Sequence record: PX930851.1
Length of the DNA stretch: 64,000 bases
DNA from: a phage
Direction: 5' to 3' (one strand)
A program made the translations under genes and the position numbers. Positions 43,988 to 52,368 of the stretch are shown here, piece after piece; the first letter of the stretch is position 1, and every line of letters begins with the position of its first letter. Under the pieces are notes generated by a model that was not told the origin of the DNA, ran no database searches, and was given only the letters and a program-made list of their open reading frames with translations.

Positions 43988-44282
43988 GTCCCATCTCCAT
44001 ATCAATTAAGTCATTTATCGTTGGTTCATTATACATCGTTTCTTCATCAGTGTAAACCGGTTCTTCCGGCTCTGGCTCTACAGTTTCCCATCTAGCCGCC
44101 CACCAAGGTTTAACCCCGAAGCTTATTAAGTTCTTCATCATCAATCCAGGATTCTAGTCCTGTTGGCAGGTCACATTCAATTTCCCAAAGAAGTTCTTCA
44201 ATTTTCTGAAGACGATCTAGTTCTTCGGCTGGAATAGTAACCATTGACGGAGTTCGTGATACATTAATATCGTAAATCATAT

Positions 44283-44498
44283 TTACCCCAATTTAGCCAT
44301 ACAATCGCCGTATTTCCACTTAGAAATAGACTTTTCACCATTAGAATAATAAACTTCGAGTTTAGCACGATTATTTTTAATTTGAATAACCTTGGCTGTC
44401 ATCAAAGTTCCATACCCATAATAAACTGCAACTTCATCACCTACATATACCACGCTTCCGCGGTAATCGTGAATATAGTCAGTTCCTTCGAGCATCAT
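44283..44498 (-). CDS. hypothetical small protein
   Basis: 71 aa. Confidence 0.45.
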   Translation of the reverse strand: MMLEGTDYIHDYRGSVVYVGDEVAVYYGYGTLMTAKVIQIKNNRAKLEVYYSNGEKSISKWKYGDCMAKLG

Positions 44499-44758
44499 TT
44501 AAAATATTCTCGCAGTTGGTCAAATCCACCAATATGACTTCCATCAGGAGCAAATACCTGGGGCATTGTCAAGCCGATTTGAGTATCACGACCTAGTTTA
44601 GTCAGAAGCTCAGCGATTTTCTCATCATCAAAAACACCTTTTTCCGGCATAATGTTGATAAATTCAAACGGCTGTTTCTTCACGGTCAAAAGACGTTTTG
44701 CATTATCACAATACACACATTTATGAATGTTGCTATCATAACCATATACTTTAAACAT
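44495..44758 (-). CDS. nrdC: glutaredoxin-like thioredoxin NrdC
   Basis: 87 aa; active site CVYC. Confidence 0.8.
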   Translation of the reverse strand: MFKVYGYDSNIHKCVYCDNAKRLLTVKKQPFEFINIMPEKGVFDDEKIAELLTKLGRDTQIGLTMPQVFAPDGSHIGGFDQLREYFK

Positions 44759-45004: not shown

Positions 45005-45394
45005 TTAATCCAAAATATTATTAGGCATTGGTTGAACACTCACAAGTTCTTTAAAGAACTCAGTAGAGTCAGGCAATTTAACCATTTCCGGAGCATGCTT
45101 ACTGAATTTATGTTTACATTGACGGCATTTATATTCAAGCTCTGGTTTACGCCAGTTAATCAACTGAACTTGTTCAGTACCGCATTCAGGGCAATTAGGA
45201 ACGTTTTTAGAAGCTCTTTCACGTCGTTCAACCATAGCCATAATAGCATCCCATGCTGGAGGTTTAAAATCTAAATCGTCGCAGCCGTGAATCTTTCCAC
45301 GCATTTCCATATCATCTTCCTCACCAGCCATAATAATTTTAATTAAACTGGAATTACTTGAAGCTGCAATGTCTTCTAATAAACGCTTTTTCAT
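45005..45394 (-). CDS. zinc-ribbon protein
   Basis: 129 aa; CPECG...CRQC. Confidence 0.5.
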
Positions 45395-46317
45395 TTCAAT
45401 ACCTCAATAGCATTACGTAAACCATGTGCTTTGGCGGTTAAAGCCTTAAGAACTTTAGTATGCTCTTCAATTTGTTTTTCAACTTCAATCAAACGAGCAT
45501 TGAGATATTCGTGTTCTTCTTTCATAGTATCATTTCCATGATTGGATTTTGGTGTAGGTTTAAATTCACTAGGGTCTTTTAATTTAATAACAAATTTAGT
45601 TTCAAACAGTGAAAGACCATAATTCGTATTATCATCAAAGGATTTGACTACATCCATATCAGATAATAACACGCGCAAATTATAAGCCAAAGAACTAATA
45701 GTTTCATTGTGTTTATTAGCTTCGCGTGGTTTCATATACGGAAGATTTTTATATATCTCATGCGGAGCGCAAACGATAATTGACAATTCAAATTGTCCAT
45801 TCTGGGACGATGGAATGAATTTAGCCGTAACCCAGTCTTTTACATTCACATTAATAGTACGGTTATCACCATGACAAAACAGTCTACGAGAATGCTTAAA
45901 AAGCATATTCACGTTATTATTGAATTCGTGTGAAAATTCACTAGCAAATTTTTCTTTACTATCTTTAGAAAACCATTCTTCTAAATAAGTTCTTTTCACG
46001 TCATTAATAATATTAAATGTAACAACACTAGCATTTGATACATTAGTCTTAATGTAGCTTGGATACATAAATTTTTTAACATTATTAACAGCTATCACAG
46101 AAGATAGTAATCGGGAACGTTTGAACCACTCGAGCAAAGAACCAAGAGAATGTGAATACGCATTTTGTGTATCTTTACAAATATGGTTTTCCCATCCAAT
46201 ATAGTCTAAAAAATCACGAAGAATATTATTGATTACTGCTCTGTGTCCAATCTGATAATTACGATGTTTAGTAATAAGACTGTCAAAATAATCAATATAA
46301 TGTTTACGAGTTTTCAT
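45391..46317 (-). CDS. paralog family member 1 (C-terminal coiled coil)
   Basis: 308 aa; N-terminus MKTRKHYIDYFDSLI; coiled-coil tail. Confidence 0.55.
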   Translation of the reverse strand: MKTRKHYIDYFDSLITKHRNYQIGHRAVINNILRDFLDYIGWENHICKDTQNAYSHSLGSLLEWFKRSRLLSSVIAVNNVKKFMYPSYIKTNVSNASVVTFNIINDVKRTYLEEWFSKDSKEKFASEFSHEFNNNVNMLFKHSRRLFCHGDNRTINVNVKDWVTAKFIPSSQNGQFELSIIVCAPHEIYKNLPYMKPREANKHNETISSLAYNLRVLLSDMDVVKSFDDNTNYGLSLFETKFVIKLKDPSEFKPTPKSNHGNDTMKEEHEYLNARLIEVEKQIEEHTKVLKALTAKAHGLRNAIEVLK

Positions 46318-46369
46318 GTTCTTCTCACTTGGTTAATGATTTATACTCCGAGCCATCCTTGGCTTTAAA

Positions 46370-47371
46370 TTACTTAATTAACTGTAAAGCTTGTTCCAGA
46401 CGATCAAGACGATTAACAGATTCTTCCCAAATCCTTTTAGCCTGCTTATATTCTTTCTGCGCTTTATTAGAAATTTCTAGAACTTCTTTATAAGCTTTTT
46501 CTAGTGCAATAACTTCTGGACGAATTTCTACCGGTTCAGGTGAATCATCAAGATTATCCATTAGTTCCTCAAGGGTAGTTTCTTCTTTAGGAGTATTCAC
46601 AATTTCATCACATTTTTGTTGATAAATTTCTTTATCAGTAGGTGAGTACGCGCACTTTACTTCACGAAGACTAATTACAATTTTATATCCTTCCCAACCA
46701 CCCATATTTTTGAAAGGATATGTATGAATACTTTTTACAGTTTCCATACAATCCAAAGCCGTCTCTAATTGATGAGTTATAGTGCTAGCAATTGAGAAAA
46801 ATTTATTAATATTCTTTTGGTTAGCTTCTGGTGTAAAAAATTCATAATTCACAAAAATAGCTGCTTTATTTTTATCGAGTTCATATTCTTTTATGATAAT
46901 CATATCAGAAGCCAAAGGATGAATTTGACGATAATCGCCATAACATAATTTAGAAGCTGATTTTAGAATTTGCTTTTTGAAAAGTCTGAAATTACTAATC
47001 CAACGACGAGTAAAAATATTCTTAGGGTCTTCTTTGATATTAAGATGATAAGAATTAACATCACCGAACCAATTGTATCCTATTACACCTTTAGTTCGTT
47101 TAATTTCTTTCCCAAAATTACCAAGAATATCCCGATTAACCAAATATGAAAGAAGACGAGACCCTTTAAAGATTATCTTAATATCATCTTTATCTACACG
47201 GCTAGAAATTTCACGAACTTCATGAATAAATTTACTGGAAGAAACAATACTTGCATCAATACTGCTGAGCCATTGATTGATAATAGAAAGAACAGCGTTC
47301 TGACTAGACATGGGTTTAACTTTATCATCAATAACGCTATTGAATGATTTGATATATTCGTTACGAGTCAT
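46370..47371 (-). CDS. paralog family member 2
   Basis: 333 aa from ATG at 47371 (MTRNEYIKSFNSVI); SD GAGGA; track start lies inside promoter. Confidence 0.55.
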   Translation of the reverse strand: MTRNEYIKSFNSVIDDKVKPMSSQNAVLSIINQWLSSIDASIVSSSKFIHEVREISSRVDKDDIKIIFKGSRLLSYLVNRDILGNFGKEIKRTKGVIGYNWFGDVNSYHLNIKEDPKNIFTRRWISNFRLFKKQILKSASKLCYGDYRQIHPLASDMIIIKEYELDKNKAAIFVNYEFFTPEANQKNINKFFSIASTITHQLETALDCMETVKSIHTYPFKNMGGWEGYKIVISLREVKCAYSPTDKEIYQQKCDEIVNTPKEETTLEELMDNLDDSPEPVEIRPEVIALEKAYKEVLEISNKAQKEYKQAKRIWEESVNRLDRLEQALQLIK

Positions 47372-47399
47372 ATTAATCTCCTCAGTAGAAAGTAAGAAC

Positions 47400-47429
47400 A
47401 TTATACCACATCCTTGTGGTAAAGTAAAC
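47400..47429 (-). promoter_or_regulatory. T4-type early promoter, 32-bp identical to the one at 2418
   Basis: minus strand gtttac-N18-tataat; 47400..47431 equals 2418..2449. Confidence 0.6.
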
Positions 47430-48448
47430 TAGTTTAGTGCGTTTAGTGCGTTGTTCAGTTTAGAACGTTGCTTCGTGAGATTTTTGACTTTTTCTTGTGC
47501 TTTTTCTAGCATCTTTTCAGCTTCTAACACTTCATTGGTCGCTTTAACGAGTTCATCATCTACTGCCTTAAGGGACTTCTCAATCGCATCCGCGTGCCAT
47601 TTTTCAACAGGTTTAAGACTCGGATTTTCAATAGGAAGAAAATTCACTTTATTGAATTTCCATGCATCCTTATTACCTGAGCTATACATCCAAAATTTAG
47701 GATCGTTTGATGAGCAATTAGATAAATTTAAGTTATCTTGCACTTCCTGCTTTTTCTCTTGCGTGACTTCGTCCTTTCTCAAAAAATCGTATTTAAATGA
47801 AACGATCATATCAAGTTCATACGTTGTTGTGTCTAATTTAAATCGTTCAAAACGAGGTAAAATCTTAGACTGAACAGCGGCAACAACATCCATATACTTA
47901 AATGCTTCTGTCAACTGTGATTTAAGGCATTCACAAATTGAAAGAGAATTTTTTGTATTAGGTTTAAAGCTAATTCGTGCAGTTCTATTATTTTCTTTTA
48001 ATGGTCTTACTTCCATCTGAAGAGTATAACCATCAAATTTCAGATTCTTTAAGTTAATATCAGAACCTTTTAATCGACTAGCAGTAGACAAAATTTGCTT
48101 TAATTGTTTACGGAATAGAGCAATAAATCTCCATTCAAGACGATAATGATTTGGATTAAAAAATCCTGTTGATAAATCGACCTTACTCTGACCAACGCCT
48201 TGAACAAATAGAGGATTTTTATAATCAATAGTTTTACAGAAATCGGTGAGCTGTTCGCGAGCAGTCATTTGCGTAATATATCCAGCTTTATCAAAATGTC
48301 GCAGCCATTCACTGCTATTCATATACTTAAAGTGAATATCACGATTAACTTTATCAGGGTCTAAATTATTTTGGCACAAAAATGTCATAACATTACGGGT
48401 ATAGCTGGCATTACGAACCATATCTTCAATTTGAGAACGAGTTTTCAT
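47429..48448 (-). CDS. paralog family member 3
   Basis: 339 aa; N-terminus MKTRSQIEDMVRNAS; coiled-coil tail. Confidence 0.55.
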   Translation of the reverse strand: MKTRSQIEDMVRNASYTRNVMTFLCQNNLDPDKVNRDIHFKYMNSSEWLRHFDKAGYITQMTAREQLTDFCKTIDYKNPLFVQGVGQSKVDLSTGFFNPNHYRLEWRFIALFRKQLKQILSTASRLKGSDINLKNLKFDGYTLQMEVRPLKENNRTARISFKPNTKNSLSICECLKSQLTEAFKYMDVVAAVQSKILPRFERFKLDTTTYELDMIVSFKYDFLRKDEVTQEKKQEVQDNLNLSNCSSNDPKFWMYSSGNKDAWKFNKVNFLPIENPSLKPVEKWHADAIEKSLKAVDDELVKATNEVLEAEKMLEKAQEKVKNLTKQRSKLNNALNALN

Positions 48449-48456
48449 AGTGTTCC

Positions 48457-49365
48457 TTAAGATTTAAGTAAATCAACAATTTTAATTAATTTTTCACGTT
48501 CAGATTTAGCTTTACTACTCAGTCCAGATAGTCTGAAAATTTCATCGTCATATTGTTGAATAGAAATATTCAGCTCTTCAATTTGCTTATTAAAATAATC
48601 AATTTGTTCAGAATGTTTTTCGTTACTACGAACTGGTACAGGTTTTGTAGGCAATTTAGTTAAACTGGATTCATCCGGGCGATAAATTAAAATACAATTT
48701 GAACCAATCGGGCATTTTGCACCAGACGAATATTCTAATGTTCCGGCTTCTTTTAAAACTTCAAAAGCTAAACAGAGATGATGCCCCATATTAACATAAT
48801 CTGTAGAGCGAGCTCTGACGTAATAATCATCGCCGCGAATACTAAATTTAAAGCATTTAAGGTCTTCTGTATTATTGGTCTTAAAAATCATTTGTTTATC
48901 TAGACCTTTAGCTAATCGAGCGCCTAATGCTAATAATCGTCGTTGATTTTCCCACAAATCCTCAATCATTTGATCGAATGATAATTTTGGCATTAGTCGA
49001 CCATAAAGGTCATATCCTTTATTATAATTACGAAGGATTTCACTCGCGTTAATACGAGACAATGCTCCAATTTTATTAAGAGCTTTCATAATGCGATTAG
49101 ATAAACCCATTCCAGACCCGTTTGTTCGCTGTAAATGTTTTTCTAATCCAAATCCAATATCAACTTTAAATTTATCTAAAATTTCAGCATGAACATCTTT
49201 GTCAATAACATTCAAATCCAAAGTTGGGTTAAATCTATGAAAAAATTTATCTGGCTCTCCACGACGAAGTACAGTCCATTCATTCAATTTTTTATTAACT
49301 AAAGATTTAATTACTGCATTGACATTATTAATTACTACTGACATATTTTCCTCACTCAATTTCAA
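48457..49365 (-). CDS. coiled-coil-tailed protein, possible fourth family member
   Basis: 302 aa; C-terminal coiled coil. Confidence 0.5.
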   Translation of the reverse strand: MKLSEENMSVVINNVNAVIKSLVNKKLNEWTVLRRGEPDKFFHRFNPTLDLNVIDKDVHAEILDKFKVDIGFGLEKHLQRTNGSGMGLSNRIMKALNKIGALSRINASEILRNYNKGYDLYGRLMPKLSFDQMIEDLWENQRRLLALGARLAKGLDKQMIFKTNNTEDLKCFKFSIRGDDYYVRARSTDYVNMGHHLCLAFEVLKEAGTLEYSSGAKCPIGSNCILIYRPDESSLTKLPTKPVPVRSNEKHSEQIDYFNKQIEELNISIQQYDDEIFRLSGLSSKAKSEREKLIKIVDLLKS

Positions 49366-49814: not shown

Positions 49815-50342
49815 TTATGCGAGTACCGTCTTTAACCGTTCTTCAAACTTCCGAAGAGTATTTTGGCGTTCAGCTCTTTGCTTTTTGTAAGTTTCAATAC
49901 GCTCTGAAATGAGAGTGTATCGTTCATTTACTGATTCTTTCATAAAATCAGGAATTTCACGAGAAGCTTTAATCTCATCAAATTTATCAATAACAGCTTG
50001 CTCTTCAGCAATTAAGTTATCATACATCAAAATATCTTTCTTGATGAACTCAATATCTTCTTGAGTTACACGAGATAATTTAGATGCTTTATCCTTTTTG
50101 TACTGTTCGTTAGTATCACGAGACCAGTGTAATGTACGATTTTTATTCGTGTTCTTGTAAATTTCTACAATACCAATCTCATCGATAATAACGATCCAAT
50201 TCCAACGAGATTTATAAATTTGTCCTCCATCAACTGTGATTTCACCTCCGATTGAGATGTCATTAAAGAACTTGCTTTGTGCTTCAGATTTAAATTTACC
50301 ATCATTGTAGTTTACCAAGTTGAAAATATCTTTAGCATTCAT
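49815..50342 (-). CDS. hypothetical protein
   Basis: 175 aa from ATG at 50342 (MNAKDIFNLV...); track start lies inside promoter. Confidence 0.5.
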   Translation of the reverse strand: MNAKDIFNLVNYNDGKFKSEAQSKFFNDISIGGEITVDGGQIYKSRWNWIVIIDEIGIVEIYKNTNKNRTLHWSRDTNEQYKKDKASKLSRVTQEDIEFIKKDILMYDNLIAEEQAVIDKFDEIKASREIPDFMKESVNERYTLISERIETYKKQRAERQNTLRKFEERLKTVLA

Positions 50343-52348: not shown

Positions 52349-52368
52349 AGGGAGCCCGAAGGCTCCCT
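52349..52368 (-). terminator. intrinsic terminator (UUCG hairpin plus U6)
   Basis: agggagcccgaaggctccct followed on minus RNA by UUUUUU; directly after nucleotidyltransferase stop. Confidence 0.65.

Follow-up and report, generated by a model that had tools for sequence, protein, structure and literature searches.

T4 is the best-studied lytic phage, yet no function has been assigned to most of the genes in its nrdC region. When expressed by itself from a plasmid, one of these genes, T4 nrdC.5, allows a T4 deletion clone to plate again on E. coli that carries dsr1, which is a SIR2-domain defense gene of strain ECOR17 (Srikant, Guegler and Laub, eLife 2022, PMC9391042). Here we describe four consecutive genes, one of them orthologous to nrdC.5, in a 64,000-nucleotide stretch of phage DNA (sequence record PX930851.1), which we call the window. 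We propose, with moderate confidence, that T-even-type phages use the proteins of this array, which are accessory and non-essential, to inhibit the anti-phage immune proteins of the host.

The sensor of Dsr1 is a TPR domain, and it is reported to recognize phage major capsid proteins (2026 preprint, PMC12803255). According to three reports, DSAD1 from phage SPbeta blocks another SIR2 defense protein, DSR2, which is triggered by the tail tube protein (PMC11087589, PMC10973363, PMC11263360). On that account, DSAD1 is, like NrdC.5, a phage protein that neutralizes a SIR2-domain NADase defense protein. The four proteins described here showed no sequence or fold similarity to the DSAD1 chains in the PDB. 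Within the T-even phages, nrdC.1 has a published anti-Septu role (bioRxiv 10.1101/2025.11.20.689424), and gp49.2 of T6 has a published anti-OLD role (PMC13096335). Like the array, these two genes are non-essential and lie in the stretch from gene 49 to nrdC.11, and they have single-gene anti-defense phenotypes. In contrast, their products are small, unrelated proteins that lack the array's architecture of about 300 amino acids (aa), with an alpha/beta core and a coiled coil.

A sequence-only reading of the window had reported four consecutive open reading frames (ORFs) of 308, 333, 339 and 302 aa, downstream of nrdC. We confirmed the four ORFs, which we call ORF-A to ORF-D, although ORF-D is more likely to be 295 aa:

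45391..46317, minus strand: ORF-A, 308 aa; ortholog of T4 NrdC.3 (91.6% identity); nrdC.4 in AR1/RB51-type records; phrog_1435
46370..47371, minus strand: ORF-B, 333 aa; ortholog of T4 NrdC.4 (89.5% identity); phrog_1435; precomputed Pfam assignment PF26897
47429..48448, minus strand: ORF-C, 339 aa; ortholog of T4 NrdC.5 (93.5% identity); Pfam DUF7235 (PF23882); phrog_2351
48457..49344, minus strand: ORF-D, 295 aa from ATG; ortholog of T4 NrdC.6 (96.5% identity over 259 aa); phrog_2257; precomputed Pfam assignment PF26899
47400..47428, minus strand: promoter-like site of the sigma-70 type in the gap between ORF-C and ORF-B, (G)TTTACT-17-TATAAT with an extended TG, identified by its match to the consensus and its conservation

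Because all four ORFs are on the minus strand, as is nrdC (44495-44758), the array is transcriptionally upstream of nrdC; it is downstream in plus-strand coordinates only. The 302 aa form of ORF-D (48457-49365) begins with a TTG inside the upstream gene. The most likely start is the ATG at 49344, as a GAGGAAA Shine-Dalgarno sequence precedes it and T4 is annotated with the same start. ORF-B would be 343 aa if it started at an upstream ATG. The position of the promoter-like site implies that it starts at the ATG at 47371 instead, which gives the 333 aa form; a GAGGAG ribosome-binding site precedes ORF-B. T4 and five further Tequatrovirus loci retain the promoter-like site with a single mismatch.

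The region that contains the array (3,975 bases) matches 510 phage records, nearly all from Tequatrovirus (T4-like) phages that infect Escherichia, Shigella, or Yersinia. The best nucleotide matches are to Tequatrovirus genomes at 97% identity, so the window is part of a T4-like genome. Most of the records (462/510) cover at least 80% of the array.

We identified ORF-C as the ortholog of the published anti-Dsr1 gene because of its 93.5% identity to T4 NrdC.5 and because of the positions of the published cloning primers for nrdC.5. These primers, SS-45 and SS-46, match the window at 48427-48448 (0 mismatches) and 47429-47449 (2 mismatches), which are the two ends of ORF-C. T4 NrdC.5 and ORF-C are also at the same position in the genome. 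Given this similarity, ORF-C probably has anti-Dsr1 activity as well. The sequence-only reading had listed the function of all four genes as unknown, which does not hold for ORF-C; its suggestion of host-factor binding fits with the ability of the T4 ortholog to counteract host Dsr1. ORF-C matches the DUF7235 (PF23882) profile along its entire length (residues 1-339; E = 3.4e-122; 408 bits, with a cut-off of 30). ORF-A is not a member of this family, as it matches the profile only at E = 0.59 and over the coiled coil, and ORF-B and ORF-D had no match to it.

The names of these genes vary. In the T4 reference (NC_000866), ORF-A to ORF-D correspond to nrdC.3-nrdC.6, while in AR1/RB51-type records the numbers are one higher (nrdC.4-nrdC.7). 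Under the AR1/RB51 naming, the 333 aa ORF-B would be the published nrdC.5; we ruled this out with the T4 record and the published primers. Also, many GenBank records label these ORFs and their neighbors as "thioredoxin." None of the four ORFs has a match to thioredoxin or glutaredoxin in Pfam or NCBIfam or contains a CxxC motif, and predicted structures of ORF-B and ORF-D are not thioredoxin-like. Presumably, the label was carried over from the gene name "nrdC.x." Either the shifted numbering or the thioredoxin label can send the published anti-Dsr1 function to the wrong gene.

The source paper treats nrdC.5 as a single uncharacterized gene. In the searchable literature, we found no report that NrdC.5 is paralogous to NrdC.3, NrdC.4, or NrdC.6, or that they share an architecture. 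We also found no paper for nrdC.3 or DUF7235 in that literature; nrdC.4 appears once, in a genome announcement, and nrdC.5 appears only as a single gene.

The sequence-only reading had described the array as tandem diversified paralogs. With BLASTP, the only pair of the four proteins with detectable similarity was ORF-A and ORF-B (25% identity over 266 residues; 31.6 bits). Both of these belong to phrog_1435 and match it across their full length (E = 6.2e-100 for ORF-A and E = 8e-165 for ORF-B), and all homologs of ORF-B carry PF26897. ORF-C's phrog_2351 corresponds to DUF7235, and both PHROGs and Pfam place ORF-D in a family of its own. To compare the families, we built alignments from homolog searches, 14 viral contigs, and annotated Mosigvirus and Jiaodavirus records, and we compared the resulting profiles with hhalign (percentages are probabilities of homology as given by hhalign):

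ORF-A and ORF-B: 98%, E = 1.5e-13, residues 2-232 of ORF-A
ORF-B and ORF-C: 91.9%, E = 6.8e-7, collinear, residues 65-332 of ORF-B with 49-331 of ORF-C
ORF-A and ORF-C: 72.5%, E = 3.2e-5, residues 65-196 of ORF-A
ORF-D and each of the others: 0.7-11%, E = 0.077-0.003, short collinear segments

From these profiles, we have high confidence that ORF-A, ORF-B, and ORF-C are homologous, despite identities of about 25% (A and B) and 22% (B and C). We think that ORF-D is probably homologous to them as well, with the link coming from the fold and short motifs rather than from the sequence profiles (11% at most).

The short motifs lie in two segments of the core. Segment 1 is FKRSRLLSSVIA in ORF-A, FKGSRLLSYLVN in ORF-B, FDKAGYITQMTA in ORF-C, and LNKIGALSRINA in ORF-D, with FKRSRLLS, FKGSRLLS, FDKAGYIT, and LNKIGALS as the respective shared stretches. 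Segment 2, which lies further downstream, is the central motif that had been noticed in the first three ORFs. We found that it is real and that it extends to ORF-D: MLFKHSRRLFCHGD (A), ILKSASKLCYGD (B), ILSTASRLKGSD (C), and LLALGARLAKGLD (D). The weak collinear alignments of ORF-D bring both segments into register. The parts of the core that are shared, as given by hhalign, are:

46928..47170, minus strand: ORF-B residues 68-148, from FKGSRLLSYLVN to ILKSASKLCYGDYR; supported by collinear hhalign alignments and by the same helix-strands-helix-helix order in the models of ORF-B and ORF-D
45847-46125, minus strand: equivalent segment of ORF-A
48056-48295, minus strand: equivalent segment of ORF-C
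48892-49098, minus strand: equivalent segment of ORF-D

Related N-termini had also been claimed for ORF-A, ORF-B, and ORF-C. This is correct for ORF-A and ORF-B, whose profiles align from residue 2-3. For ORF-C, the hhalign alignments begin only near residue 50, and the resemblance is one that we see by eye: members of the ORF-C family also have the N-terminal motif TR-x-[EH]-[YFL]-I, as in P0225 (MITREEFIASM) and in Mosigvirus gene 210 (MAFITRRELIKEF). ORF-D lacks the motif.

The AlphaFold2 models for ORF-B and ORF-D (mean predicted local distance difference test scores of 84.7 and 78.8) agree in the order of the elements that make up the core. A helix comes first and leads into a short strand region; next are two helices plus a short one, then a hairpin, a long helix, and another hairpin. 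The core is followed by a low-confidence linker and then by a long C-terminal helix. When we used Foldseek to search predicted viral structures, the ORF-B model matched nrdC.6 of JS10 (P0134), which is an ortholog of ORF-D (E = 7e-5). Also, both models matched uncharacterized proteins of 300-370 aa from the Straboviridae, namely from the phages Enterobacter IME523, Pectobacterium PM2, Klebsiella Mineola (gp080), and Erwinia Cronus. In Acinetobacter phage Acj61, the models of ORF-B and ORF-D matched consecutive accessions, E5E4A1 and E5E4A2. These cross-matches had E-values of 7e-5 to 4e-7 and modest template modeling (TM) scores (0.37-0.51), in part because the orientation of the coiled coil differs between the two models.

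We considered whether ORF-D might not be a true paralog, with its domain order and coiled-coil tail gained independently, so that the homologous array would have three members. The low hhalign values for ORF-D and its separate PHROGs and Pfam families would fit this idea. However, the weak alignments are collinear and place two motifs in register, the models of ORF-B and ORF-D arrange their helices and strands in the same order, and the Foldseek cross-matches are reciprocal and lead to the same set of Straboviridae proteins. Furthermore, ORF-D is adjacent to the rest of the array in every examined genus with more than one copy. Overall, an independent origin for ORF-D seems unlikely. Tandem diverged paralogs is thus a firm description for A, B, and C, and a probable one for D.

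All four proteins end in a predicted coiled coil, as the sequence-only reading had noticed. A single heptad register runs through the last 42-56 residues of each protein, and its a and d positions carry more hydrophobic residues than they do when the same residues are shuffled:

45394..45519, minus strand: C-terminal helix of ORF-A, residues 267-308; p = 0.008
46373..46519, minus strand: C-terminal helix of ORF-B, residues 285-333; a single helix (285-332) in the model; p = 0.008
47432..47599, minus strand: C-terminal helix of ORF-C, residues 284-339; 0/5000 shuffles reach the observed score (p < 0.0002)
48460..48621, minus strand: C-terminal helices of ORF-D, residues 242-295, with a break at RLSGLSS; helices at 242-271 and 277-294 in the model; p = 0.0002

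As a control, we scored the final 49 residues of the nrdC.10 ortholog, which gave p = 0.89. ORF-A, ORF-B, and ORF-C end in the same register and with similar sequences (AIEVLK, ALQLIK, and ALNALN; L-x-x-A-[LI]-x-[LV]-[LI]-K). Among distant orthologs, the C-terminal helix is the best-conserved block.

The ortholog of T4 NrdC.8 (49815-50342, minus strand, 175 aa from ATG) also has a heptad-repeat tail (...RKFEERLKTVLA; p = 0.004). Because it lacks profile similarity to the four-gene family, we did not include it. Family hidden Markov models did not identify any further copies in the rest of the window.

The composition of the array varies across the T4-like phages:

Tequatrovirus: D-C-B-A
Dhakavirus loci (L009-L014, one of which is vB_EcoM_005): D-C-B
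VR20, VR25, and VR26 loci (L005-L007), which we take to be Gaprivervirus: D-C-B
Mosigvirus APCEc01: D-C-A
Klebsiella phage Mineola (Jiaodavirus): one recognizable member, gp080, with 22.7 bits to the ORF-C profile
Acinetobacter phage Meroveus (Lazarusvirus): one candidate, orf115, of the same size, with a coiled-coil-like tail and in the same position beside a glutaredoxin gene; its profile match is not significant

At the nrdC.10 homolog of Aeromonas phage UP87, the neighborhood is different, and no gene of about 300 aa is annotated just downstream (as judged from the annotation). Since ORF-A is absent from Dhakavirus and from the VR20/VR25/VR26 loci, it could have been a Tequatrovirus-specific duplicate; we rejected this because Mosigvirus APCEc01 has D-C-A. 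To look for distant relatives, we compared a combined profile for ORF-A and ORF-B to 1.84 billion representative proteins. There were only 9 matches, all of them apparently of the NrdC.3/NrdC.4 type or fragments; none was a bacterial protein or a distant relative. Judged by sequence, the family seems to be restricted to T4-like phages.

The low identities among A, B, and C and the differing composition of the array across genera imply that the duplications are old. The copies are differentially retained and stably inherited across genera, and this is not a rapidly turning-over array.

There are two types of ORF-A alleles within Tequatrovirus, one in the window and the other (type 2) in L001, L004, and L008. 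They are 60% identical overall, and the differences are mosaic: identity is 82-85% across the N-terminal 85 residues and across the coiled coil, but it drops to 45% in the alpha/beta core. The type 2 allele is 78% identical to the copy in Mosigvirus APCEc01, which suggests exchange between genera.

Some natural phages have disrupted copies. In a contig of 167 kilobases, P0224 (299 aa) is an in-frame chimera that joins about residues 146-270 of ORF-C to the second half of a type 2 ORF-A (...AWKFNKVN|MLFKH...), with the loss of the 3' end of C, the whole of B, and the 5' end of A. In the Tequatrovirus contig L008 (6971-8003), a frameshift appears to have divided ORF-B into two ORFs (193 and 158 aa). 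In NC_000866, nrdC.6 (L018, 10067-10894) is 275 aa and diverges after ...QIEEL (IFLFNNMMMKFSDYLD), with the apparent loss of the coiled coil by a frameshift. Full-length D is found in another T4 record (MT984581) and in the HIDEN-SEQ annotation of T4 (891 nucleotides), so NC_000866 either reflects a difference between strains or contains a sequencing error. These variants imply that individual copies can be lost. In a T4 transposon map, nrdC.3, nrdC.4, nrdC.5, and nrdC.6 were all scored as non-essential, with 96-100% of sites hit.

In Shigella phage Sf25, about 83 residues are duplicated in tandem within the ORF-D ortholog (P0064, 378 aa), with IRAHSTDYVNMGH...QIEEL present twice.

Could the four proteins be subunits of one hetero-oligomeric complex, assembled via the C-terminal coiled coils and with a single joint function? 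The shared register and endings of A, B, and C and the conservation of the coiled coil among distant orthologs are consistent with this, as is the co-occurrence of D and C with B, A, or both in four genera of Tevenvirinae. On the other hand, T4 nrdC.5 alone from a plasmid restores infection of Dsr1 cells (with the caveat that the mutant may keep other paralogs), the copy number varies from one to four, intact B is missing from natural phages (P0224, and L008 where it is split), and D in the T4 reference record lacks the coiled coil. We therefore view a single complex as improbable.

To quantify selection, we used the Nei-Gojobori method to compute gene-wide ratios of nonsynonymous to synonymous substitution rates (dN/dS) relative to five Tequatrovirus relatives:

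ORF-A: 0.15-0.34
ORF-B: 0.18-0.28, and 0.45 relative to the split copy in L008
ORF-C: 0.14-0.21
ORF-D: 0.07-0.18
nrdC, nrdC.8, and nrdC.10 orthologs: 0-0.09, except for one unstable value of 0.25 for nrdC at very low divergence

All four genes of the array evolve faster than these neighbors and are nonetheless under purifying selection, which is relaxed about 2-5 fold by comparison with them. The gene-wide values of 0.07-0.34 do not demonstrate the selection for variation that had been suggested for the array, and pervasive positive selection is not supported.

These values also bear on another explanation, in which only ORF-C is an immune inhibitor, while A, B, and D have other roles in host takeover or are in slow, near-neutral decay. 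The four genes' dispensability in the laboratory host, their relaxed selection relative to the neighbors, and the occasional disrupted copies are all compatible with this. However, intact orthologs are kept in hundreds of genomes (462/510 records have at least 80% of the array, and 742 records contain a homolog of D), dN/dS well under 1 speaks against neutrality, and several other anti-defense genes are nearby. We give this explanation a small chance of being correct.

We return to our proposal that the array encodes inhibitors of host immune proteins. Each protein would begin with a helical N-terminal region, followed by an alpha/beta core, a linker that is disordered and varies in length, and a C-terminal heptad-repeat helix of 42-56 residues. 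The core diverges most, both from one paralog to another and from one allele to another, and it probably serves to bind the target. The conserved C-terminal helix probably drives oligomerization, which would yield a multivalent inhibitor. ORF-C may bind Dsr1 directly, at either the sensor domain or the SIR2 domain, while ORF-A, ORF-B, and ORF-D might inhibit other defense proteins or other variants of Dsr1. These roles for the core and the coiled coil, and the other targets, are suggested by analogy with Dsr1 and the capsid protein and with DSR2 and DSAD1. The array is probably expressed early, given the conserved promoter-like site of the sigma-70 type upstream of ORF-B.

Several points weigh against this proposal. 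The inhibitor experiments concern T4 NrdC.5 only, and direct binding to Dsr1 is suggested by analogy. The early timing comes from the match to a consensus promoter and from general background on this region of T4. Oligomerization is suggested by heptad periodicity only, which we scored with a simple script of our own and not with an established coiled-coil predictor. The structural models cover ORF-B and ORF-D only. The link to ORF-D is from fold matches (TM-scores of about 0.4-0.5) and short motifs, and long helices can inflate Foldseek scores. Finally, the rescued T4 mutant has several deletions and may still carry other paralogs (PMC9391042).

We found no functional domain in the four ORFs with Pfam, NCBIfam, or PADLOC. 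The sole PADLOC match was a weak one to BrxC over the coiled coil of ORF-B (E = 0.007, 12 bits), and we do not consider any of the four to be a known defense protein. Sequence searches of the PDB gave no real match, just designed helical repeats and ribosomal proteins, and no family member with a solved structure. The nearest solved folds to the alpha/beta core are tail terminator or tail completion proteins with a fold like that of lambda gpU (for example, 6tba_4A, 8q01_M, 9mu2_D, 8bcp_C, and 3fz2_A).

These folds raise the idea that the family is a modular decoy platform, in which the core would imitate structural proteins of the virion and an early coiled-coil multimer would occupy the sensor domains of defense proteins. 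Each paralog may then blind a different sensor before the true, late trigger appears. The idea draws on the fold matches together with the reported recognition of the major capsid protein by Dsr1 and of the tail tube protein by DSR2. We consider it very unlikely.

We also noted some features of the surrounding genes. T4 genes 49.2 and 49.3 had no tblastn match in the window between the 49.1 ortholog and nrdC (44110-44498, minus strand). Instead, this slot holds two small ORFs of 56 and 71 aa; it is apparently a variable position. The ortholog of T4 NrdC.2 (45005-45394, minus strand) is a zinc-ribbon protein with two CxxC pairs (Zn_ribbon_8 in Pfam, E = 6.6e-6, which is below the curated cut-off). 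The window's version has 129 aa against 104 aa for that of T4, from which its C-terminal tail differs, and it shares 47-100% identity with relatives. Lastly, there is a terminator-like site on the minus strand (52349-52368), in which a T-run comes after the GC-rich hairpin AGGGAGCC-TTCG-GGCTCCCT. It lies upstream of a promoter-like site (51839-51811) and of the nrdC.10 ortholog.

For an accessory region of T4, these results are unsurprising. The array is one ortholog of a known anti-Dsr1 gene along with three uncharacterized paralogs. Placing NrdC.3, NrdC.4, and NrdC.6 in one family with NrdC.5 makes them three specific candidates for immune inhibitors, and the combination of a variable alpha/beta core with a conserved coiled coil provides a structural frame for how NrdC.5 could act on Dsr1. 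The variation in the array across genera and the swapped cores of ORF-A suggest that these genes contribute to differences in host range among therapeutic T4-like phages.

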